The notes beneath the pieces were generated by a model. That model saw nothing but the letters and a program-made list of their open reading frames with translations. It did no database searches and was not told where the DNA came from. From a virus (taxonomy: Duplodnaviria > Caudoviricetes): a DNA stretch of 64,000 bases. This document shows positions 23,006-59,704 of the stretch, one piece after another (within the stretch, counting starts at the first letter, position 1; each line of letters begins with the position of its first letter). Both the position numbers and the translations under genes were made by a program. Location: positions 192,001 to 256,000 of IMG/VR virus record IMGVR_UViG_3300037467_003067; one strand, written 5' to 3'.

Positions 23006-23077
23006 GGGACTGAGGTGTAATTAGTAGCATGTTAATCTGAAAAGTTAACGGGTCGAGTGCGATTCTCGGCGGTCCCG
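23006..23077 (+). tRNA. tRNA-Phe(GAA)
   Basis: GGGACTG/CGGTCCC acceptor, loop CTGAAAA, T-loop TGCGATT; G73 atypical. Confidence 0.8.
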
Positions 23078-23090
23078 CTTCTTTGACAAT
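23078..23090 (+). promoter_or_regulatory. boxA-like antitermination element
   Basis: CTTCTTTGACAAT resembles rrn boxA. Confidence 0.45.
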
Positions 23091-23111
23091 TTGGCAAATC
23101 TTTAAGCATAA

Positions 23112-23226
23112 TTCATTGACGATGCCCCTCGCAACCGGGGGTGCCTCACGTTGATTAAGCCGGATAAAAGCTAGGTTAGAAGCTCGCCGGTCCTAGGAGC
23201 GAGTGAAGGCTATATTCGTCAGTGAA
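23112..23226 (+). ncRNA. Unidentified ~115-nt structured RNA
   Basis: 11-bp terminal helix TTCATTGACGA/TCGTCAGTGAA enclosing several hairpins. Confidence 0.55.
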
Positions 23227-23263
23227 AAACAATTTAAACAATAACTTAAATTCAAACTAAGCA

Positions 23264-23515
23264 ATGAAAAAAGTAATTCACGTTAATCAACACAAGATTA
23301 AAAGTAACCGTAAAACAGGTCTTAACGAACCGGTCCTTACCGTCAAGACCTACAAGACTAATGACTACGCTCACGAGGTCTACATCGACGGACCCTGTAA
23401 GATCATCTATCGTCCAAATAAGCCGCTCTCGTGCGGTGCCGAAGTCTGGATCGAGGTAGAGAGCGGGGTTGAAGTGGAGATAACTGATTTTCAGGGAGAG
23501 AATAGAGATGGATAA
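23264..23515 (+). CDS. Phage hypothetical protein
   Basis: VIHVNQH..KPLSCGAEVWIE, a pattern I recall from phage proteins. Confidence 0.7.
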   Translation: MKKVIHVNQHKIKSNRKTGLNEPVLTVKTYKTNDYAHEVYIDGPCKIIYRPNKPLSCGAEVWIEVESGVEVEITDFQGENRDG

Positions 23516-23705
23516 CAGCAAAAATGAGGAACCAAAAATAAGGTCGTGGACTAAATTTTTGGATGCCATCTTTCCTTGGAACGGCGGTACTTGTCGGATC
23601 TGCCGCCAAAAATTTAAAACAGACGAACAATGGCATCACGTAGATGGATTGTTTGGCTATCAAATATGGAGATGTAATTGTAAAGGAAGATCGATCAATA
23701 GGTAA
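23508..23705 (+). CDS. Small Cys-rich protein
   Basis: CxxC..CxC; overlaps previous gene. Confidence 0.5.
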   Translation: MDNSKNEEPKIRSWTKFLDAIFPWNGGTCRICRQKFKTDEQWHHVDGLFGYQIWRCNCKGRSINR

Positions 23706-23717
23706 ACATTATCAAAC

Positions 23718-23794
23718 GGCAGTGTAGGAGAATTGGCATATCCGCTCAGTTCAGACCTGAGTGCTTTTGTGGGTTTCGAATCCCACCACTGCCA
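23718..23794 (+). tRNA. tRNA-Leu(CAG)
   Basis: GGCAGTG/CACTGCC, loop TTCAGAC; short variable region, 8-nt T-loop. Confidence 0.8.
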
Positions 23795-23800
23795 TCATAT

Positions 23801-23882
23801 GTCCACCTGGGGGAATTAGCAGACCCGTGGTACTCAAAATGCCATGCCGAGAGGCGTACCGGTGCGAGTCCGGTGGTGGATA
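23801..23882 (+). tRNA. tRNA-Leu(CAA)
   Basis: GTCCACC/GGTGGAT, loop CTCAAAA, variable arm, T-loop TGCGAGT. Confidence 0.88.
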
Positions 23883-23884
23883 CT

Positions 23885-23967
23885 GCCAGGACGTGGCGTA
23901 AAGGCAGCCGCGCTAGTCTTAGGAACTAGTCCCGTAAGGGGTGAGGGTTCAACTCCCTCCGTCCGTA
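23885..23967 (+). tRNA. tRNA-Leu(UAG), irregular acceptor stem
   Basis: Loop CTTAGGA, variable arm; acceptor GC(CA)GGACG/CGTCCGT needs a 2-nt bulge. Confidence 0.72.
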
Positions 23968-23973
23968 CTACAT

Positions 23974-24055
23974 GACCATCTGGGGGAATTAGCAGACCCA
24001 TGGCACTTAAAATGCCATACCGCAAGGTGTCTCAGTGCAAATCTGAGGATGGTTA
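23974..24055 (+). tRNA. tRNA-Leu(UAA)
   Basis: GACCATC/GATGGTT, loop CTTAAAA, T-loop TGCAAAT. Confidence 0.88.
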
Positions 24056-24062
24056 CTCGAAT

Positions 24063-24143
24063 GCGTCGGCTGGGCATTGACGAGCCCAAGTGGCTGTAAC
24101 CCACTCGCCTCTGGCTGTGGCGGTTTAACTCCGTCCCGACGCA
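24063..24143 (+). tRNA. tRNA-Tyr(GUA)
   Basis: GCGTCGG/CCGACGC, loop CTGTAAC, variable arm. Confidence 0.88.
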
Positions 24144-24163
24144 CTTTATTCAGGAGAAGACCA

Positions 24164-24346
24164 ATGGCGAAGAAAAAGATGACGATTCCGGAGCAGATCA
24201 AGCACGAGGAAGCGTACGTGGACTTCCTTCGCAAGCGATTGGATTCCGAGAACTACAAATCCAGTGTAGCTCCGGAAGAGTACCAAAAGACCAAAGAGAA
24301 GTATAACAAGGCGAAGTTTCGACTGAAGACCTTGAAGACTAAGTAA
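24164..24346 (+). CDS. Small basic protein
   Basis: MAKKKMTIPEQ.. with SD AGGAG. Confidence 0.7.
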   Translation: MAKKKMTIPEQIKHEEAYVDFLRKRLDSENYKSSVAPEEYQKTKEKYNKAKFRLKTLKTK

Positions 24347-24359
24347 AACAAATCAATCA

Positions 24360-24444
24360 GACCTTGTGCTGGAACAGGTATACAGCGTCGGCTTAGACCC
24401 GACGGTCCCTAGTAGACATGAGGGTTCGACTCCCTCCAAGGTCA
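24360..24444 (+). tRNA. tRNA-Leu(UAG)
   Basis: GACCTTG/CAAGGTC, loop CTTAGAC. Confidence 0.9.
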
Positions 24445-24450
24445 TTTTAT

Positions 24451-24534
24451 CGTCCCGTGCTGGAATTGGTATACAGCACCGATTGAGGATCGGTGATCCT
24501 TAGTGATATGAGGGTTCGACTCCCTTCGGGACGA
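24451..24534 (+). tRNA. tRNA-Leu(GAG)
   Basis: CGTCCCG/CGGGACG, loop TTGAGGA. Confidence 0.9.
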
Positions 24535-24590
24535 CTAAATAATTATTGGATAAAAACCATATAAAAGTTAGGATTCAACTATGTTATTGA

Positions 24591-25328
24591 ATGGCAAACT
24601 CAAATGTAGAATATACTAAAGAACTTCTAGAACCATTAGTCAAAACTAGCTATTCAGTAGCCCAAGTATTACGAAAACTTGGTAAAAGATTAGACGGAGG
24701 CGTTCATTCTCATTTATCTAAAACAATTAAAAACTTAGAATTGGATACATCTCATTTTACGGGACAAAGAAGCAACTGCGGTCCGAATCACAAAGGAGGA
24801 CTTCGCAGAAGAACATGGCAAGAAGTATTAGTTTTAAGGGCTAACGATAGAAGAAAAGAAGACACATACTTATTAAGACGCGCATTAATTGAATTTGGTC
24901 GTGAATATGTTTGTAGTAATGAAAAGTGTAAAATAGCAGGAGAGTGGCTAGGACAAGAAATAACCTTAGAAATTAATCATAAAGACTGTGATTGGTCGAA
25001 CAATAAACCAGAGAACTTAGAGTTTTTGTGTCCTAATTGCCATTCTCAATACCACAAATTTCTGACACAGTCCAAACGCAAGCATAATAGACAGATTAAA
25101 ACCAAATCTAATAAGTCTAATCATTGCGTTGATTGTAACAAAGCAATATATAATAAATCTACTCGATGTAAATCATGTCAAGGTAAAACATCTCCCAATA
25201 AAATTAATTGGCCGCCAACTAATGTTTTAATTGAAATGGTCCAACAAAGTAATTACTTAGCTGTGTCAAGACAGCTAGGAGTATCTGATAACGCAATTCG
25301 TAAGAGAATTAAAAATCACGCCGCTTAG
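24591..25328 (+). CDS. HNH homing endonuclease inserted in tRNA array
   Basis: LEINHKD..NNKPENLEFLCPNCHS; AT-rich. Confidence 0.85.
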   Translation: MANSNVEYTKELLEPLVKTSYSVAQVLRKLGKRLDGGVHSHLSKTIKNLELDTSHFTGQRSNCGPNHKGGLRRRTWQEVLVLRANDRRKEDTYLLRRALIEFGREYVCSNEKCKIAGEWLGQEITLEINHKDCDWSNNKPENLEFLCPNCHSQYHKFLTQSKRKHNRQIKTKSNKSNHCVDCNKAIYNKSTRCKSCQGKTSPNKINWPPTNVLIEMVQQSNYLAVSRQLGVSDNAIRKRIKNHAA

Positions 25329-25340
25329 TGTAGCATAAGT

Positions 25341-25427
25341 GACCTTGTGGTGAAATTGGCGAGACACGGCGGGCTTAAACCCCGTTGCCTGTTAAAGGGC
25401 ATCCCAGTTCGAATCTGGGCAAGGTTA
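25341..25427 (+). tRNA. tRNA-Leu(UAA)
   Basis: GACCTTG/CAAGGTT, loop CTTAAAC. Confidence 0.9.
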
Positions 25428-25433
25428 TCATTG

Positions 25434-25515
25434 GGAGGGGTGGACACAGGCACGTCAGACCGGTTGCTAACCGGCTCGCCGGAAACGGTTGCAGGTTCAA
25501 ATCCTGTCCCCTCCG
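25434..25515 (+). tRNA. tRNA-Ser(GCU)
   Basis: GGAGGGG/CCCCTCC G73, loop TTGCTAA. Confidence 0.88.
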
Positions 25516-25574
25516 CTCAATCAAAAAATCGAGAAATAAAATGAGTATCTTTTGAGTTGACAAATACATAATGC

Positions 25575-27644
25575 ATGAGCAAAAATTTGATCAACATCAA
25601 TAACGCCTGTATCCCCAATAAGATATTGAGCGACACAATTTACCCCCTACTTAATAACGCTTTGTTGATCGAAGGACCGCAAGGACCATCGGGACCTCAA
25701 GGTGGTGGAGGCTCTTTGGAAATTGGAGGCGATATCATTGGGGGAACGGCATCATCTGTTCTCTTTGTGGGCAATTCTGGAATTCTCAATCAAGACACAT
25801 CAGGACTTGTTTACAACGTTAGCTCCAAGAGATTGGGTGTAGGTGTATCTTCTCCCACGGCAGCTTTACATGCGGCTTGCAGTTCATCATCCAGCAAAGC
25901 CGCTGTTTTTCAAGGTGCATCTGGACAATCTGCCAATATTACTGAAATTCAAAATAGCAATGGAGACATACTTCACAGTTTTGATGGCTCTGGCGTTACG
26001 ACTATCAACCACACTGCCGAGGGCGGCACATCCTACTTCAGTTATATAAATAACGTAAGTGAAAGCGCCGCGACGAGTGTTCCATTTCTTCAATCCTATG
26101 GCGGCACTCCATTTACCAATACTCCGATTGGCGGTGGCGCACCAACCTCTGTCATCGACAATGTTTTTGCACAGGGTTGGGAGCGTGTACCTGGGGAGCT
26201 ACCAGGATATACGGAGAATTGGGAACATTATTGGCACACCCAATACATGACCGAGCGTCATGGCAACTTCACATCTATTGACGGAACTGTCGCTTATCGT
26301 CCATGGTACTGGATTATCAACAATGAAACTTATCGTCTAAACCGAATTGATAGAGGATACATTTATGATTGGTTTGGACGATTAGGTACATTCCCACTTT
26401 TAAGAATCCTCACGAACGACAACGACTCTGGAAGTGTGATCATTCAGAACGACGGGACCGCCCCGCCTCTGCAAGTGACCAGTCCTGGAGGCAATGTTTC
26501 ATTCACTCTCAACCCAGATGGAGCTATCCTTGCCCAATGCGGCATCAATGCAACCTCTGATTCTCCTATCCATAACGGTGTAGGGCTATTCTCAATTGGA
26601 ACCTACTGGACGGGGAGTGCTTCTTCAGGAGCCACGACAGGAATACAAACAATTGTCGCTGGAAATAACGATTTTCATCTGCTGGCTACTTCTGGAAACG
26701 CCAATTACCGCTTCATGAATAATGGCAGAATTGGAGCCAATGTAACAACAGATCGTATAACAGAAAATATTGTTATGTCCCCTGGATATCTAGCCAGCAT
26801 CAATAACGATACTCCCGCTAATGCTACTTATCGTCTAATTGGCTTGAATGCTACAGATCAAGTGGACATTGACACAGATCGACGTGGAGTTGTATTTGGA
26901 ACTGGCATTCAATTTTCTGAGTCTGACTTTGGCAACGGTCGCATTCCCATAGTCACACTCGGCCTAACTGGAACCACAGGATCGCCTAACGGAATTGATG
27001 CAACGATTTCCACTTGGTTCCAAAGAAGGGTGGTTAGTCGAGAAATATGGATTGGAACTGACACCGACACAGGGGCCACACGCATCCAAGGATCGGGAGG
27101 TTTGACAGTAAGCTGTGGGGCTTCGGGTACGAATAATTCGTTATTCCTCTCCACCTCGGCAAATTATACCGTCGCCAATAGTTGCCGCATCCTCTTTGGA
27201 CCCCACTTCGGGTTCTTACCCGCTAACGCGAATTGCCCCTTCATGGAAGGATACAACGACCTTAGCTCAAATGGCGGCGTTGACGGTGGATTGAAGTTTG
27301 GAACCTATTATTCATCAGGCGATGGGCTGGCTGTTCGGCTGAAGATTTCTCCCATTGGATTTATTGGAATTCACGAGACATCTCCCGGTGGTCAACTCCA
27401 TGTTACCACCAGTTCCGCAACCACCATCGGAACGATTACCAGAGCCGCCCCGTCACAGACTGCAAATCTCTCCGAGTGGCAGGACAATAATGGCAATCCT
27501 TTATCTTCCATCAAGTTTAACGGGAGCTATGCGCCACCATCACTAGCCGACTCCGCAGCCGCAAACAATTCAATATATTACAGCACTACTCAATCGAAAC
27601 TATGCTACAAAGATCCAGGAGGAGTATCTAATCCACTTTACTAA
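25575..27644 (+). CDS. Tail-fibre-like structural protein
   Basis: G/S/T/N-rich; GPQGPSGPQG; repeated 'GIG..SP...LH' and 'QTANLSEWQ' modules. Confidence 0.7.
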   Translation: MSKNLININNACIPNKILSDTIYPLLNNALLIEGPQGPSGPQGGGGSLEIGGDIIGGTASSVLFVGNSGILNQDTSGLVYNVSSKRLGVGVSSPTAALHAACSSSSSKAAVFQGASGQSANITEIQNSNGDILHSFDGSGVTTINHTAEGGTSYFSYINNVSESAATSVPFLQSYGGTPFTNTPIGGGAPTSVIDNVFAQGWERVPGELPGYTENWEHYWHTQYMTERHGNFTSIDGTVAYRPWYWIINNETYRLNRIDRGYIYDWFGRLGTFPLLRILTNDNDSGSVIIQNDGTAPPLQVTSPGGNVSFTLNPDGAILAQCGINATSDSPIHNGVGLFSIGTYWTGSASSGATTGIQTIVAGNNDFHLLATSGNANYRFMNNGRIGANVTTDRITENIVMSPGYLASINNDTPANATYRLIGLNATDQVDIDTDRRGVVFGTGIQFSESDFGNGRIPIVTLGLTGTTGSPNGIDATISTWFQRRVVSREIWIGTDTDTGATRIQGSGGLTVSCGASGTNNSLFLSTSANYTVANSCRILFGPHFGFLPANANCPFMEGYNDLSSNGGVDGGLKFGTYYSSGDGLAVRLKISPIGFIGIHETSPGGQLHVTTSSATTIGTITRAAPSQTANLSEWQDNNGNPLSSIKFNGSYAPPSLADSAAANNSIYYSTTQSKLCYKDPGGVSNPLY

Positions 27645-27771
27645 TGTATTCGTGAGTTTTTTCGTCATATCGCAGAGGTTGGATCGTTCTCGTGTGCGGG
27701 GCTGTATGCGTGCGATCCGAAACCGGTGATCGAGGTGGTCATGGAAGTGACCAAGCAGGAGTTTGAAAAGC

Positions 27772-27803
27772 TGCGAAGCCCACGGGACATTCCGTGGGCT
27801 TCG
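27772..27803. terminator. 13-bp hairpin between convergent genes
   Basis: GCGAAGCCCACGG-GACATT-CCGTGGGCTTCGC. Confidence 0.6.
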
Positions 27804-27807
27804 CTAG

Positions 27808-28275
27808 TCACTCGCCACCAGCGACAAATCTACCGCGTCGAACCATTGGACCAACGCTCGACCTGTCAGGTGCGAAGGCTAGTTGATTGTAGTTTGCACC
27901 GGGACCGCTGTGTCGTGAGAAGTGCGGAAATTCGGATGGCAATCCATTGTCGCCGTAATCGGACGGGACATGACCGGCATGAGGACCACGGCCCATTGAC
28001 GCAGCCTTGATTGGATTGGACGGCATCTCGGTTCCGTACTTCTTGTCCATGATCATGTCGATGATACGATATCGCAGTTTCTTTTCCTCTTGATCATCGT
28101 TGACCGTGTGGAGCTTATTCCAGAATTTGGCAGCCAGTGGTTTGGGGAGCATGTCGAGAAGTTGGTCGGTGTCGAGGTAGTGGAGATACGCCCAATGATT
28201 GGCGTAGTCGCTGTTGTTTTCTCGCATCGCCATATCATACTTCATTTGCTCATAGAATTGATAGAAAGATTGCAT
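27808..28275 (-). CDS. Hypothetical protein, possible virion-internal protein
   Basis: N-terminus MQSFYQFYE. Confidence 0.7.
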   Translation of the reverse strand: MQSFYQFYEQMKYDMAMRENNSDYANHWAYLHYLDTDQLLDMLPKPLAAKFWNKLHTVNDDQEEKKLRYRIIDMIMDKKYGTEMPSNPIKAASMGRGPHAGHVPSDYGDNGLPSEFPHFSRHSGPGANYNQLAFAPDRSSVGPMVRRGRFVAGGE

Positions 28276-28339
28276 GAATTGGTTTCCTAAAGAGACTAGG
28301 TGATATTTTATATAGATTGGTATAATTATTTAATATATT

Positions 28340-28421
28340 GGTAGTGATCCGAAGTTGGCGAGGACACCCGCTTGAACCGGGCTGCCCGAAAGGGTTGAGA
28401 GGTCGGCACTCTCCGCTACCG
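28340..28421 (+). tRNA. tRNA-Ser(UGA)
   Basis: GGTAGTG/CGCTACC G73, loop CTTGAAC, atypical T-loop GTCGGCA. Confidence 0.78.
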
Positions 28422-28445
28422 CTCTTATTTAGAAAGGACAAGATT

Positions 28446-28736
28446 ATGGCGGGCTATATTGCGTGCTATGAACACAGCGACAACGCGACTAAGAACAAGG
28501 CGGCGGCGATGGTCAAGGTGACATGCCAGACCGATTTCGCTGCTAAAACTGAGGAGTTCGTCAGTTTTTGTCAGCGGATTGCCAAGCTGGCGTGTGGGTT
28601 CCAGATCGAGGACACCAAGGCGTTCCTCGAAATCATCGAAAACGATTTCGAGGATCTTGCTGCTGATCTTGATGCTTTAAGAACTGACCTCAAAGAAAAC
28701 ATTGAAATTGCCGCAATCCGGGTCATGAAACTTTGA
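28446..28736 (+). CDS. Minimal EF-Ts-like protein (96 aa)
   Basis: GYIACYEH..MVKVTCQTDFAAKTEEF..LKENIEI matches EF-Ts core. Confidence 0.78.
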   Translation: MAGYIACYEHSDNATKNKAAAMVKVTCQTDFAAKTEEFVSFCQRIAKLACGFQIEDTKAFLEIIENDFEDLAADLDALRTDLKENIEIAAIRVMKL

Positions 28737-28744
28737 AATTAATC

Positions 28745-28773
28745 TTGTAGCACATATCGATATGTGCTACAAT
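28745..28773 (+). promoter_or_regulatory. Palindromic promoter/operator
   Basis: 28-bp perfect palindrome that also reads TTGTAG-17 nt-TACAAT. Confidence 0.6.
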
Positions 28774-28789
28774 AATCAAATACAAAATT

Positions 28790-28885
28790 TCAACTCCGGA
28801 AGAAGCTGCTGAGGTATATGATAAAGCAGCACTGGAGAGATGGGGAGATAAAGCAGTGACTAATAAGTCCTTAGGGCTTTTATAA
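28790..28885 (+). pseudogene. AP2 DNA-binding domain remnant
   Basis: STPEEAAEVYDKAALERWGDKAVTN with no in-frame start after TAG at 28748. Confidence 0.55.
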
Positions 28886-28904
28886 TTTGCTGAATTAAAA
28901 TCAT

Positions 28905-28991
28905 AGTAGGAAGGCGAATGTTGGTTTGTCGCGACTAGTTGGAAGCTAGTTCCAGGTAACACTGGCAGCGGTTCAATTCCGCTTCCTACTG
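28905..28991 (+). tRNA. tRNA-Ser(GGA)
   Basis: AGTAGGA/TCCTACT G73, loop TTGGAAG, long variable arm. Confidence 0.88.
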
Positions 28992-28995
28992 CTAA

Positions 28996-29088
28996 ACCCG
29001 ATAGGCGAATCGTTGGATAGTCGCGCCCAATTAACCCTTGGGTCCGTCTGAAATTACGGCGGGGCATGTTCGACTCATGTATCGGGTG
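28996..29088 (+). tRNA. Ser-type tRNA body with AAC anticodon
   Basis: ACCCGAT/ATCGGGT G73, loop TTAACCC, long variable arm, T-loop TTCGACT. Confidence 0.72.
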
Positions 29089-29092
29089 TTAT

Positions 29093-29179
29093 GGGGGATA
29101 GGTGGATGTTGGTTTGCCTCACTTATTTCGAAAATAAGACCGTCTAATCGCGGCGCAAGTTCGATTCTTGTGTCCTCCG
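29093..29179 (+). tRNA. tRNA-Ser(CGA)
   Basis: GGGGGAT/GTCCTCC G73, loop TTCGAAA. Confidence 0.85.
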
Positions 29180-29218
29180 CTTAAAGATTTGCCCTAGGAC
29201 ATGGAGGTCCTTAAATAA

Positions 29219-56206: not shown

Positions 56207-56941
56207 CTAAACGAATTCCTGAGGGAACTTGGTGCGGAATTCGGCTTGGGTCTCGGGGGTGATGTCCTTCACGTAGATCGCGAGGTCGATAGCCGAGAAG
56301 TATTCGGCTATTTTTAGGTCCTGAAAGGCGGCACGGCAGAACGGCGACATCAGAACGTAATAGGGGCTGACCTTACCCAAGACCACCCATCGCCTGAGGT
56401 TGTTCGTCTTGACCATATCGACGACATCGGACTTCGACGGCGACGGGTTGTAGAACCGGGAGAGGAACGTCTTGGTCCGATCGAGGTCTTGCGCGATCTT
56501 GAACAGGGGAGTTCGTTCCTCTACCTCCCGCTGCTGGTTCTGTTCGCGTTTTGCGACCTCGTATTTCCGACGCCAGATCTTCCACCTGACCCACGCCTTC
56601 TCACCGCACAGGCACACGGGATCGATCAGGACATGCGAACCATTGGGTCGCTTGATCCCTTTGAGTATCTCAAGCTGCGCACGGATATAGTGAACGAGGT
56701 CGGCTTCTTCGAGGACGCCTTTGGTTTCCCTGAGGAGTTTCCAAGCGATCTTGAAGAGGTGGCACTTGCGAGGGTCGCCGTCTTTTGGTAATCTTGAATA
56801 CTTGTAATCAGGCAATATCTTCTGGCACATCTTCATCCAGATCAGGCATACCTTGAACGCCTTTGCCTCTTGCTCAGTCATCTTGTAATCGAAAATCGGC
56901 TCAAGAGAGAACATGTTTTCTTCTGGTTCCTTAGATGCCAT
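56207..56941 (-). CDS. Hypothetical protein
   Basis: Long ORF; TAAATA 8 nt upstream. Confidence 0.72.
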   Translation of the reverse strand: MASKEPEENMFSLEPIFDYKMTEQEAKAFKVCLIWMKMCQKILPDYKYSRLPKDGDPRKCHLFKIAWKLLRETKGVLEEADLVHYIRAQLEILKGIKRPNGSHVLIDPVCLCGEKAWVRWKIWRRKYEVAKREQNQQREVEERTPLFKIAQDLDRTKTFLSRFYNPSPSKSDVVDMVKTNNLRRWVVLGKVSPYYVLMSPFCRAAFQDLKIAEYFSAIDLAIYVKDITPETQAEFRTKFPQEFV

Positions 56942-57005
56942 AATGCTTGTATTTATCTGTCTCAGTATAGCAAAATCATTTAGAAATAAAAGGTCAAAAA
57001 ATGCC

Positions 57006-57034
57006 TTGACATTAGTTACTTAATATGGTAAATT
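57006..57034 (+). promoter_or_regulatory. sigma70-like promoter with extended -10
   Basis: TTGACA-17 nt-TAAATT with TG. Confidence 0.7.
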
Positions 57035-57040
57035 CCTCCT

Positions 57041-57420
57041 CAGACTTCTTTATGGAGTTTGTAGGTCTAACTCAGTAAGCGAAAAACGACCACCATAAAA
57101 ATTCTCGTAATAAGCAATTAAATAAATTATTGCTGACGCTTTGTCGATGTGGTCTTTAAGCGTGCTTCTGAATAATGCAAGCATATTCTTGCAGATAGCT
57201 GTGCCCACTGGTTTACGTCGGACCAGCATTCTAGATGTGTGATAATTTAAATCCAGGCAACGTGTAACCTCACGACCTGGTGGGTAATACGAAACACACT
57301 GCTAGGACAGCTTAAGATTCTACCTGGACTTGGGACCTAGAACTTTACTAGGAATTACCCATAAAGGCGACGGTCTATATAGAGACCAGAATTTACTAAG
57401 TATCAAATGGATTTGAGTAG
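57041..57420 (+). ncRNA. Unidentified large structured RNA (~380 nt)
   Basis: ORF-free interval behind promoter, about 10 nested helices and an 8-bp pseudoknot. Confidence 0.65.
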
Positions 57421-57426
57421 TTAATC

Positions 57427-58293
57427 ATGGCATTATTTCGCTATCCAGGTTGTAAGGGCAAGGTCTCCAAAGTCATCTCAACTTCTCTGGCAAAATACGC
57501 TGAAGATCATCCTGAGGCTGAATACCGTGAGCCGTTCTTCGGAGCCGGTGGCATCGGATTTGAGTTGCTAAAAAATGAATACCCCGAAAAGGTCTGGTTC
57601 AATGATCGTGACCTCACGATCTGTGCCGTATGGAATTCGATCTATCAGAACCCCGAGGAATTGAAGGAACGACTTGAGGCATTCACCCCTTCGGTCGATG
57701 CCTATTTTGAATTCAAGGAATTTTTGCTGAAGATTTCGGAACCTGGTGATCTAGATAACTACCCACTCACAGAAATCGCCTTCAAGAAAATCGCCTGCCA
57801 TCAGATGTCTTATTCGGGTCTTGGAACCAAGGCGGGCGGTCCCATCGGGGGCGTCGGACAAAAAAGTAACTATGGCGTCGGTTGCCGCTATAGCGTCAAA
57901 ACCCTTTTCAAGAACATCGCCAAGATTCGGGAATTAATTCAGCATCGCTTCACACATCAGACTGATTTCTGTACAGCATTGGATTTTGAAGAAGTTATCC
58001 ATGACCAGTCGTGTCCTGCGTTCCTTTACCTCGACCCTCCCTACTACGAGAAAGGTCCGGACCTCTACCAGTTCAGCTTTGACCAAAGCGACCATGAGCG
58101 CCTGGCTGTCGCCCTCAAAGGTTGCCAGCATCCCTGGCTGCTGTCCTACGATGATCATCCCGAGGTGGTCCGGCTCTACGAGGGATGGGCTGTCATAAGT
58201 ACCTTAAATTTCACTTACACTATCAATGCTAAGAATGGCGGAGTTAAGAAGCGTGAGTTACTGATCGGCAGTCCCGGATGGGAAGGAATCTGA
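57427..58293 (+). CDS. Dam-like (D12 class) adenine methyltransferase
   Basis: FRYPGCK, EPFFGAG, YLDPPY, LLSYD. Confidence 0.9.
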   Translation: MALFRYPGCKGKVSKVISTSLAKYAEDHPEAEYREPFFGAGGIGFELLKNEYPEKVWFNDRDLTICAVWNSIYQNPEELKERLEAFTPSVDAYFEFKEFLLKISEPGDLDNYPLTEIAFKKIACHQMSYSGLGTKAGGPIGGVGQKSNYGVGCRYSVKTLFKNIAKIRELIQHRFTHQTDFCTALDFEEVIHDQSCPAFLYLDPPYYEKGPDLYQFSFDQSDHERLAVALKGCQHPWLLSYDDHPEVVRLYEGWAVISTLNFTYTINAKNGGVKKRELLIGSPGWEGI

Positions 58294-58295
58294 CA

Positions 58296-58415
58296 ATGTT
58301 CTTGATCAATGTTTCGATAGGCGTCGGAGCATTCCTCGGTTTCATATTCGCGATCTATCTGGTCGCATGGGTCGTAGAGAAGATTGGGCATCACACATGG
58401 AAAACCAGGCAGTAA
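58296..58415 (+). CDS. Small single-TM protein (not in ORF track)
   Basis: MFLINVSIGVGAFLGFIFAIYLVAWVVEKIGHHTWKTRQ. Confidence 0.5.
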   Translation: MFLINVSIGVGAFLGFIFAIYLVAWVVEKIGHHTWKTRQ

Positions 58416-59704
58416 CGCAGGATCGAGTGGTCATAGCACAGAACTTGCACAAGACCGTCAATGGTGTGCCTGTCGTCTACCTGAAGCTCAACCCGGAATA
58501 TCCCGACTTCACTGCACATGCCCCCGGAACGATCGAGGTCATGTCGCCCCATGGAAAGACCTCGATTCCATTTGACCGGCACACGATCTGGGACGCGATG
58601 AGCCTGCTCGAAGTCGCCGTGTTTGACGAGATCGTGATCGCCTGGAACTTCAAGAACTTGGCGACTTATGCCCGACACCATATGAAGCGGATTGGCAAGT
58701 TCGATTTCAAATTGCTCGACCTGAAGCTGATCGAGGCATTCTGCGGCAAGAGGGGCGAGAAGTCCCCTGAGAGCTTCCAGGACGCCCAGAGGCGGATGGT
58801 CGAGGCGGCAACCAATACAAGCTGGAAGCGCGTCCACGAGGGCATTCACTTGCCCCTGGCGAAGCGCGTGGTTCCAGCCTTGGAATGCGAGGGCATCATC
58901 GACACGATCGGTCGTCGGACGGTCTATGCGAGCTACGAGATCGACTGGACGGTGACCGGGAGGATGGCGTGTCGGCTCATGACCAGGGGGTACAGCCCGC
59001 ACGCCGACTGCAATTCGGCACGTTACAAGCCTCGCGGCGAGGAGGAAGTCGTGGTCTACTTCGATTACCGCGCCATGGAAGTCGGGATGATCCAGTGGCT
59101 TTCCGGCGACGAGGAACTGAAATCTCTGTTGAATTCAGGTCAAGATGTCTACGAGGGGTCCTGGTACAAGTTGACGAACCTGACCAACATGCCCAAGGAC
59201 TGGAAGCTGAGTTTCCTCGCCTACTTCTTCGGCATGGGGGCTGAGGCGATGTCGGCACGGCATGGCTGGTCGCTTGAGGTCAGCAAGGAGATGATGTCGA
59301 GGATGAGCAAGGTGTTCTCATCGGCATCTAGCTACCTCAGGGAGGTCAGGAAGCAGGCTGGCAACGAGGTGGTTAAGGATTTCTTCGGGCGACCACGGGA
59401 CTGTCGCAACGAGCCGCACAAAGCGCAGAATTTCGTGATCCAGTCCCCGGCGAGCATCGTCTGCCTGGAGAAGATGATCCAGCTTCACGACAACTGCCCG
59501 GCGTTCTCCCGCCCGGCATTCCATGTTCACGACGGATGCGCCTTGATCTGCGATGTCAAGGTGGTCCGAGAGGTCTGTAGGCAAGCGTTGGCGATTCTCG
59601 AATCCGAGAGCGCGTTCTGTCCCGGAATCCGACTCAAGGCGTCAGCCAAGGTCGGCAAGCATTTTGGCAATAAGATCCTGATTCCCGAAGAGTGGAGGGT
59701 GTGA
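58397..59704 (+). CDS. Degenerate family A DNA polymerase-like protein
   Basis: TVTGR, motif A FDYRAME, motif B K..F..FFG, FFGRPR, NFVIQS, motif C VHDG. Confidence 0.8.
   Translation: MENQAVTQDRVVIAQNLHKTVNGVPVVYLKLNPEYPDFTAHAPGTIEVMSPHGKTSIPFDRHTIWDAMSLLEVAVFDEIVIAWNFKNLATYARHHMKRIGKFDFKLLDLKLIEAFCGKRGEKSPESFQDAQRRMVEAATNTSWKRVHEGIHLPLAKRVVPALECEGIIDTIGRRTVYASYEIDWTVTGRMACRLMTRGYSPHADCNSARYKPRGEEEVVVYFDYRAMEVGMIQWLSGDEELKSLLNSGQDVYEGSWYKLTNLTNMPKDWKLSFLAYFFGMGAEAMSARHGWSLEVSKEMMSRMSKVFSSASSYLREVRKQAGNEVVKDFFGRPRDCRNEPHKAQNFVIQSPASIVCLEKMIQLHDNCPAFSRPAFHVHDGCALICDVKVVREVCRQALAILESESAFCPGIRLKASAKVGKHFGNKILIPEEWRV

Follow-up and report, generated by a model that had tools for sequence, protein, structure and literature searches.

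What is encoded in a 485-nt intergenic gap of a Caudoviricetes genome in which no open reading frame (ORF) of at least 60 amino acids can be found? The gap (56942-57426) lies in a 64,000-nt stretch of viral DNA, hereafter called the window, which corresponds to bases 192001-256000 of the 298.6-kb IMG/VR record IMGVR_UViG_3300037467_003067 (G000, estimated to be 59% complete). It separates a minus-strand gene for a protein of 244 amino acids from a plus-strand gene for a D12 methyltransferase. A preliminary description, made from the sequence alone, had proposed that positions 57006-57420 specify a large, promoter-driven, pseudoknotted non-coding RNA of unknown class. Our results support this core claim: the gap holds a large, promoter-driven, pseudoknotted and non-coding RNA of no described class. 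We hold it as nearly certain that this is a real structured RNA family, although its fold and its 3′ boundary differ in part from those first drawn.

Folding of the single sequence separated it only marginally from shuffled sequences (z = -2.0), so that the case for a fold rests on homologs. Homologs of the 244-amino-acid neighbour protein, of which 34 were retrieved, led us to contigs from other samples carrying the same RNA. Besides the window, copies were found in a second record (G001, 253 kb, also L002), located by an exact-word scan, and in five other contigs, designated by L-numbers. A covariance model of the conserved core (R1; 244 positions, 56 pairs) scores 251 bits in the window, 247 bits in G001, L028 and L027, 220 bits in L026, 173 bits in L023 and 77.5 bits in L114. 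These seven lineages formed the basis of the covariation analysis, which the preliminary description had named as a check and which revealed strong covariation.

In the model-guided alignment (A9), 88.8% of the cells are paired, compared to 34-44% once the partners on the 3′ side have been slid along by 1-3 columns. Double-sided changes are found in 37 of the 56 pairs and in 4-9 after sliding, while the covariation score is 0.50 as compared to 0.10 at most. When A9 was compared with 500 shuffles, none reached the observed value on four of five measures, and three did so for the remaining one, further pair types. Because A9 was fitted to the structure, which inflates its pair counts somewhat, we recounted on A6, an alignment made by MAFFT alone, this time including P1 and the pseudoknot. 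In A6, 82.2% of the cells are paired (38-48% when slid) and 29 pairs show double changes (6-11 when slid). P1, the pseudoknot and the tail lie outside R1 and were checked on the MAFFT alignment and by script.

Every complementary segment that had been listed beforehand is present where it had been placed, and most of these segments proved to form conserved helices. The helix now named P3 is fully paired in the seven lineages, with double changes in two of its six pairs. Double changes also affect four of the five pairs of the AGCAAT/ATTGCT helix, all six of TGCAAG/CTTGCA, four of six in P5 and all five of CTGGT/ACCAG. For the P7 hairpin the outcome is mixed: the inner CGTG/CACG helix covaries (3 of 4 pairs with double changes), whereas the outer one is uninformative in either direction because it never varies. 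Three of the proposed pairings did not hold. The helix said to close the RNA paired 57070 with 57414, which is located outside the conserved unit, while 57072-75 pairs with 57168-71 as part of P2. The CCTAG/CTAGG hairpin falls in a patch that is specific to each lineage, and the 3′ arm of the GGTCT/AGACC hairpin is missing from the 94%-identical G001 copy. Four helices had been overlooked, namely P1, P2, P8 and P9. P1, which closes the structure, is maintained with five different sequences across lineages and displays double changes at 4 of 8 pairs in the MAFFT-only alignment.

The crossing pseudoknot was confirmed with slightly refined limits (Table 1). Its 3′ strand falls outside P1, so the pseudoknot crosses that helix. 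In the MAFFT alignment, which was fitted to no structure, it is 92.9% paired with double changes at three of seven pairs; A-U becomes G-C at two positions in L026 and in L027/L028, and the helix grows to 9 base pairs in L027. The patch between P1 and the 3′ strand of the pseudoknot ranges from about 13 to more than 30 nt across lineages, and its versions in the window and in G001 defy alignment, although the two cores are 99% identical. In three lineages, a local copy of the 5′ strand of the pseudoknot, noted by eye, is located just upstream of the 3′ strand and may allow two alternative folds. Further out, RNAalifold, given two sequences, predicts a pairing of 57042-55 with 57361-76. A similar pairing of 4-5 base pairs can be drawn by eye in L026 and L027, with no covariation, and we therefore propose a P0 pairing of the tail with the 5′ end of the RNA as tentative. 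Long unpaired stretches are identical in nearly all members, and many junction bases never vary. Such conservation is typically seen where an RNA has tertiary structure or binds partners.

The RNA directly follows a near-consensus sigma-70 promoter (-35 TTGACA, -10 TAAATT), which scored 10 of 12 in our promoter scan, with an upstream TG. As had been proposed, the element is promoter-driven: the promoter is present in all seven lineages, with the same -35 hexamer (a single change in one of them) and a TAnnnT -10. The spacing is kept at 16-17 nt although the spacer sequences are unrelated. An AGA is found about 7 nt past the -10 in six of the seven lineages, and its distance is constant. This geometry suggests a 5′ end near 57042 and transcription by the host RNA polymerase. 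The promoter lies on the strand expected for the RNA, since G-U pairs outnumber A-C pairs in the helices (27 vs 12). The 3′ end is placed at about 57380 because identity to the G001 copy decays there; the conserved unit stops near 57380-57390, and not at 57420 as initially drawn.

Table 1. Positions, within the 64,000-nt window, of the promoter, the RNA, its structural elements and the two flanking genes.
Feature	Position	Strand	Remarks
Sigma-70 promoter, extended -10	57006-57034	+	-35 at 57006-11, 17-nt spacer with TG, -10 at 57029-34
RNA gene, ~340 nt	57042-57380	+	5′ end from promoter geometry and conserved AGA, 3′ end from identity decay
Conserved core, covariance model R1	57068-57314	+	251.4 bits here; 77-247 bits in six other lineages
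P1 closing helix, 5′ strand	57061-57068	+	pairs with 57315-57323
P1 closing helix, 3′ strand	57315-57323	+	one bulged base at 57319
P2 (domain 1)	57072-81/57163-71	+	R1
P3 (domain 1)	57088-93/57149-54	+	R1
P3a (domain 1)	57113-18/57129-34	+	R1
P4 hairpin	57176-81/57188-93	+	R1
P5 (domain 3)	57197-202/57307-12	+	R1
P6 (domain 3)	57208-12/57222-26	+	R1
P8 (domain 3)	57230-34/57302-06	+	R1
P9 (domain 3)	57237-41/57295-99	+	R1
P7 (domain 3)	57253-57/57276-80 with 57261-64/57271-74	+	R1
Pseudoknot, 5′ strand	57282-57288	+	between P7 and P9; partner 57354-60
Variable patch	57326-57353	+	between P1 and pseudoknot 3′ strand; length and sequence lineage-specific
Pseudoknot, 3′ strand	57354-57360	+	outside P1
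P0, 3′ strand (tentative)	57372-57376	+	may pair with 57042-46
Divergent neighbour gene, 244 amino acids	56207-56941	-	handle used to reach homologs
D12-class N6-adenine DNA methyltransferase gene (Dam)	57427-58293	+	PF02086, E 2.4e-16; context, outside conserved unit

The comparison between the window and G001 indicates how the element spreads. A stretch of 385 nt in G001 (window 57004-57385) is 94% identical, and the similarity stops on both sides: the flanks of the RNA show no resemblance in DNA or protein. The two genomes have no other stretch of more than 180 nt in common, and just 12 pairs of similar ORFs, with a median identity of about 35%. Over the 247-nt core, two positions differ (99% identity), and even loops that vary elsewhere in the family are identical. 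The differences form four clusters, at 3 of the 17 promoter-spacer bases, at 57113-14, in the unalignable 57318-57352 and in everything past about 57381. A near-identical core with clustered differences amid unrelated genomes points to a cassette of promoter and RNA that was transferred recently and then underwent mosaic recombination.

All copies come from phage contigs of soil or rhizosphere origin, with one copy per genome. The RNA adjoins every relative of the neighbour gene with at least 56% amino acid identity whose contig reaches far enough upstream, and was not found beside relatives at 50% identity or less. In L004 and L019, the contig ends within the RNA, so that these copies are partial. 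In addition, four contigs from different Logan runs (L019, L020, L021 and L022) break off at one and the same base, roughly 94 nt inside the element, and the reads of one sample contain several variants of it; in soil metagenomes, the element seems to act like a repeat at which assemblies break. A third, more divergent variant is present in Logan contigs; the lengths of its indels are not divisible by three. The stretch was located in nine soil or rhizosphere DNA runs, and no RNA run was listed.

Outside these contigs, the family was not encountered. R1 detected no copy in 52 whole related megaphage records, one of which is 100% complete at 533 kb, while the same model re-found G000, G001 and G002, used as positive controls. 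Neither nhmmer nor the covariance model found anything at 80 viral loci containing distant homologs of the neighbour gene, and no match was obtained when the region was compared by BLAST with 50,697 phage records and 72,556 plasmids. Relatives of the Dam protein were sought in viral contigs and none was found. Two exact-pattern scans of JGI metagenome contigs returned no match, one pattern being too long and the other possibly spanning a variable base. Five further pattern scans of viral contigs retrieved at most G001/L002 and its sibling L004. Within IMG/VR, the RNA is present on only three contigs. Two family-invariant blocks were also searched as exact patterns in 185,579 GTDB bacterial and archaeal species genomes. 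One had no match; the other had six, which agree over the pattern itself and nowhere else, and we rejected them as chance matches. This exact-pattern scan, which distant homologs could escape, gave no sign of a host gene from which phages might have captured the RNA.

The records G000 and G001 also have a second short DNA element in common, of about 110-170 nt, present in two and three copies, respectively, that are 78-92% alike. It lies outside the window in G000 (G000:C1, 65917-66094 and 139071-139211) and at L011:3047-3225, L009:6658-6752 and L016:16706-16852 in G001. It has a strongly conserved core and no Rfam match, and could be a phage-specific promoter, loosely like a -24/-12 site, or another small RNA.

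We read the source phage as a megaphage of about 0.5 Mb, because an identical copy of the 244-amino-acid protein sits on a 585-kb contig and because the record encodes a large terminase and an array of 13 tRNA genes (23006-29180, ARAGORN). ARAGORN assigns seven of these tRNAs to Leu, three to Ser, one each to Tyr and Phe, and calls a 93-nt one as Val; as Leu, Ser and Tyr predominate, the array mainly consists of types with a long variable arm. The neighbour protein is confidently predicted to adopt an all-alpha fold (predicted local distance difference test, pLDDT, 89) that has no match in the PDB. Its family spans at least 135 viral contigs, many of them estimated to be pieces of genomes of about 0.5 Mb, and its members usually adjoin replication genes. 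On the other side of the RNA, beyond Dam, a 445-amino-acid protein (58367-59704, plus strand) matches only profile positions 105-380 of the family-A DNA polymerase domain, which form the C-terminal portion of that domain. The protein could be a polymerase that is truncated or split; its relative in L026 has 386 amino acids. In G001, the 305-amino-acid ORF upstream of the RNA has no homolog at all. A 228-amino-acid downstream ORF belongs to a huge family of repeat proteins, whose relatives are uninformative.

The explanation that we favour, with moderate confidence, is that this is an autonomous, single-copy gene for a structured non-coding RNA of about 340 nt, found only in a narrow group of soil and rhizosphere megaphages of about 0.5 Mb, and acting in trans as an early RNA. 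In this scenario, the host RNA polymerase would transcribe the RNA early in infection. The transcript, which folds into P1 and three domains (P2-P3-P3a; P4; P5-P6-P8-P9-P7) with the pseudoknot tying the 3′ tail to domain 3, would act in trans as a stable ribozyme or as the RNA of a ribonucleoprotein. Since no phage protein is conserved near the level of the RNA, a host component would be a more plausible partner than a phage protein, unless catalysis is self-sufficient. Several leads favour an action in trans. On its 3′ side, the transferred unit stops where the RNA structure does, and it includes neither a terminator nor a ribosome-binding site. The downstream genes vary, a separate sigma-70 promoter precedes the next gene in L027, and in L023 there is no ORF in more than 300 nt downstream of the RNA. 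Taken by itself, action in trans is a proposition on which we find the arguments evenly balanced. More speculatively, the RNA could belong to a hitherto unseen class of large RNAs, catalytic or part of a ribonucleoprotein, which megaphages would express from a host-type promoter as soon as infection starts, which would act in trans on a conserved host machine or on nucleic acids, and which would pass between unrelated phages as a self-sufficient cassette with its promoter; we regard this as possible, though rather doubtful. Either way, the RNA would add a player to the biology of half-megabase phages, and if it is catalytic or directed at the host, it would reveal a new mechanism of phage takeover. 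The clear promoter, the covariation-backed structure with its pseudoknot, a size fit for chemical probing and cryo-EM (cryo-electron microscopy), and the mobility of the cassette make it amenable to experiments.

Several points weigh against this interpretation. The transcript, its ends and its stability are deduced from DNA. Besides the inflation of the A9 counts, the family amounts to seven lineages, two pairs of which are close (window/G001 and L027/L028). The partner of the pseudoknot is ambiguous in L023 and not visible in L114, and its GGG could alternatively pair with the nearly invariant CCC at 57204-06, a competing pairing that stays available because the CCC does not vary. No intrinsic terminator was found 3′ of the RNA in any lineage, which fits a 5′ leader equally well. 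Finally, the next gene is co-oriented with the RNA in all five contexts that have one, 35-140 nt away, and the promoter scan detected no separate promoter for Dam in the window.

These last observations are at the heart of the main rival explanation, in which the RNA is a cis-acting 5′ leader of a downstream early operon, either a large riboswitch-like sensor or an RNA of the put/EAR type, which would modify the polymerase that transcribes it for processive antitermination. The RNA stands directly after a strong promoter, with no terminator before the next gene, and the start codon of Dam in the window is only 37 nt away. Dam is the downstream gene in three of the five contexts, and the local copies of the pseudoknot strand, seen by eye in three lineages, may permit two alternative folds. 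An antitermination RNA would, moreover, work with any downstream genes and so be portable. However, in the two remaining contexts Dam is replaced by a gene for 70 amino acids and by a DUF6745-like gene. The contigs L114 and L115 are too short for a full context. No expression platform is conserved. From the pseudoknot to the next start codon, both the distance (67-120 nt) and the sequence vary among lineages. The separate promoter in L027 and the ORF-free region in L023 also speak against a leader. The antitermination RNAs known so far measure 65-120 nt and not 340 nt. We consider a leader unlikely, if still a serious contender.

A second explanation is that the RNA is an origin-associated primer transcript, which would persist as a hybrid with its template and be extended by the nearby family-A polymerase. 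The RNA indeed lies in a replication module, with Dam and the PolA-like gene downstream, and relatives of the neighbour gene adjoin genes for PolA, Prim-Pol and helicase. In G001, the cumulative GC skew peaks at about 60 kb and the RNA copy is at 62.4 kb. In L023, a repeat of about 67 nt occurs twice in tandem just downstream of the RNA (L023:55-201). Its copies are 88% alike, and a short motif recurs within it, so that it resembles iterons. Yet G000 has no skew inflection at the RNA, which makes the skew inconsistent between the two genomes, the repeat was not seen in the other lineages, and no polymerase gene is found near the RNA in G001. Primer transcripts are not known to need many invariant unpaired bases or a pseudoknot, and both are present here. 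Altogether, we judge this origin model improbable.

It could also be asked whether the RNA belongs to an established class from which it has diverged too far for the Rfam models to recognise it, for example RNase P RNA, transfer-messenger RNA (tmRNA), group I introns, 6S RNA, or guide and bridge RNAs. In size and topology, it is reminiscent of RNase P RNA, with P1 as closing helix, a tentative P0 and a long-range pseudoknot, and the phage carries many tRNA genes. Nevertheless, this possibility is already largely refuted, and we give it very little weight. With Rfam 15 (4227 families) at gathering thresholds, the matches in the window are tRNAs located elsewhere. At E-values up to 10, the region 56800-57600 yields scattered noise of the small nucleolar RNA and microRNA types, below half the gathering score, and no family recurs among L026, L023, L027 and L114 at E-values up to 5. 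The search that had been set beforehand thus returned no known family, in line with the initial remark that no hallmarks of tmRNA, RNase P or introns were recognised. The helix order is unlike that of RNase P RNA and group I introns, and no gene for TnpB, IscB, IS110 or a reverse transcriptase is adjacent.

Individual candidates were rejected as follows. tmRNA is not supported, as ARAGORN finds the 13 tRNAs but no tmRNA in the window and Rfam has no tmRNA match; no RNase P RNA model matches at E-values up to 10 in the window or up to 5 in the divergent members. For group I or II introns, the RNA is intergenic with its own promoter, and no Rfam intron model matches. An RNA of the retron or DRT (defence-associated reverse transcriptase) type was discarded because the reverse transcriptase domain PF00078 was not found anywhere in G000 or G001, while control genomes were matched. 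Likewise, omega RNA and bridge RNA guides were set aside, the neighbours containing no TnpB, IscB or IS110 domain (Pfam, PHROG) and the 5′ end being conserved, unlike that of a guide.

The last alternative, that there is no RNA gene at all but a small protein gene or a DNA-level element (mobile repeat or binding-site array), is already largely refuted and hardly credible: an antisense stretch of 83 codons without stop exists in the window (with a 59-amino-acid ATG ORF at 57050-57229) and a gene is called over the L114 copy, but stop-free frames shift between lineages on either strand so that none is conserved, indels are not multiples of three, covariation preserves base pairs and not codons, G-U exceed A-C pairs, no terminal inverted repeats are seen by eye at the ends of the unit, and each genome has a single copy. 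The gene called in the public record at L114:116-403 (plus strand, 95 amino acids) runs antisense over that divergent copy (77.5 bits) and is probably a false call.

Is the RNA then new? Our literature search retrieved no description of it. A survey of IMG/VR intergenic regions for structured phage RNAs by Fremin et al. (2023; PMC10690425) reports four candidates typically located upstream of DNA N6-adenine methyltransferase genes. These resemble the element studied here by their Dam-upstream context, as in the window, the comparison being one of descriptions and not of sequences. For the pipeline of that survey, three IMG/VR contigs are probably too few. We conclude that this is very probably an undescribed RNA family, compared with the Dam-upstream candidates on the same descriptive basis. 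As a family, it has no detectable relative.

Set beside known systems, the RNA has partial counterparts. It resembles the HK022 put and Bacillus EAR elements in being promoter-proximal, co-oriented with the downstream genes, followed by no terminator and portable with its promoter, and it has a pseudoknot in common with EAR. It differs from them in being three to five times larger, in its three domains and in the lack of an Rfam match. Like ColE1 RNA II and the T4 origin transcripts, it is a folded, promoter-driven transcript in a replication module with an adjoining family-A polymerase gene; unlike them, it comes with an inconsistent GC skew and with junction bases that are more conserved than expected for a primer. 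With bacterial RNase P RNA, it has in common its size, the closing helix P1 (and a tentative P0), a long-range pseudoknot, a stand-alone promoter-driven gene and a tRNA-rich genome. However, in its pseudoknot the 3′ tail pairs with a distal domain, which is not the P4 geometry, and none of the universal RNase P motifs, sought by eye, is present.

The last comparison is with GOLLD and ROOL, large orphan RNAs linked to phages and prophages that have recently been reported to form RNA-only multimeric cages (bioRxiv 10.1101/2024.12.08.627333). The RNA described here does not match their Rfam models. At about 340 nt, it is also shorter than GOLLD and ROOL RNAs, which measure roughly 500-800 nt. Like them, it is large and intricate, has many conserved unpaired bases and resides in a phage genome with a tRNA array. 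Bacterial or phage RNAs of more than 300 nt rarely display a conserved architecture of this extent that looks tertiary, and most such large classes whose function is known are ribozymes, ribonucleoprotein cores or self-assembling cages.
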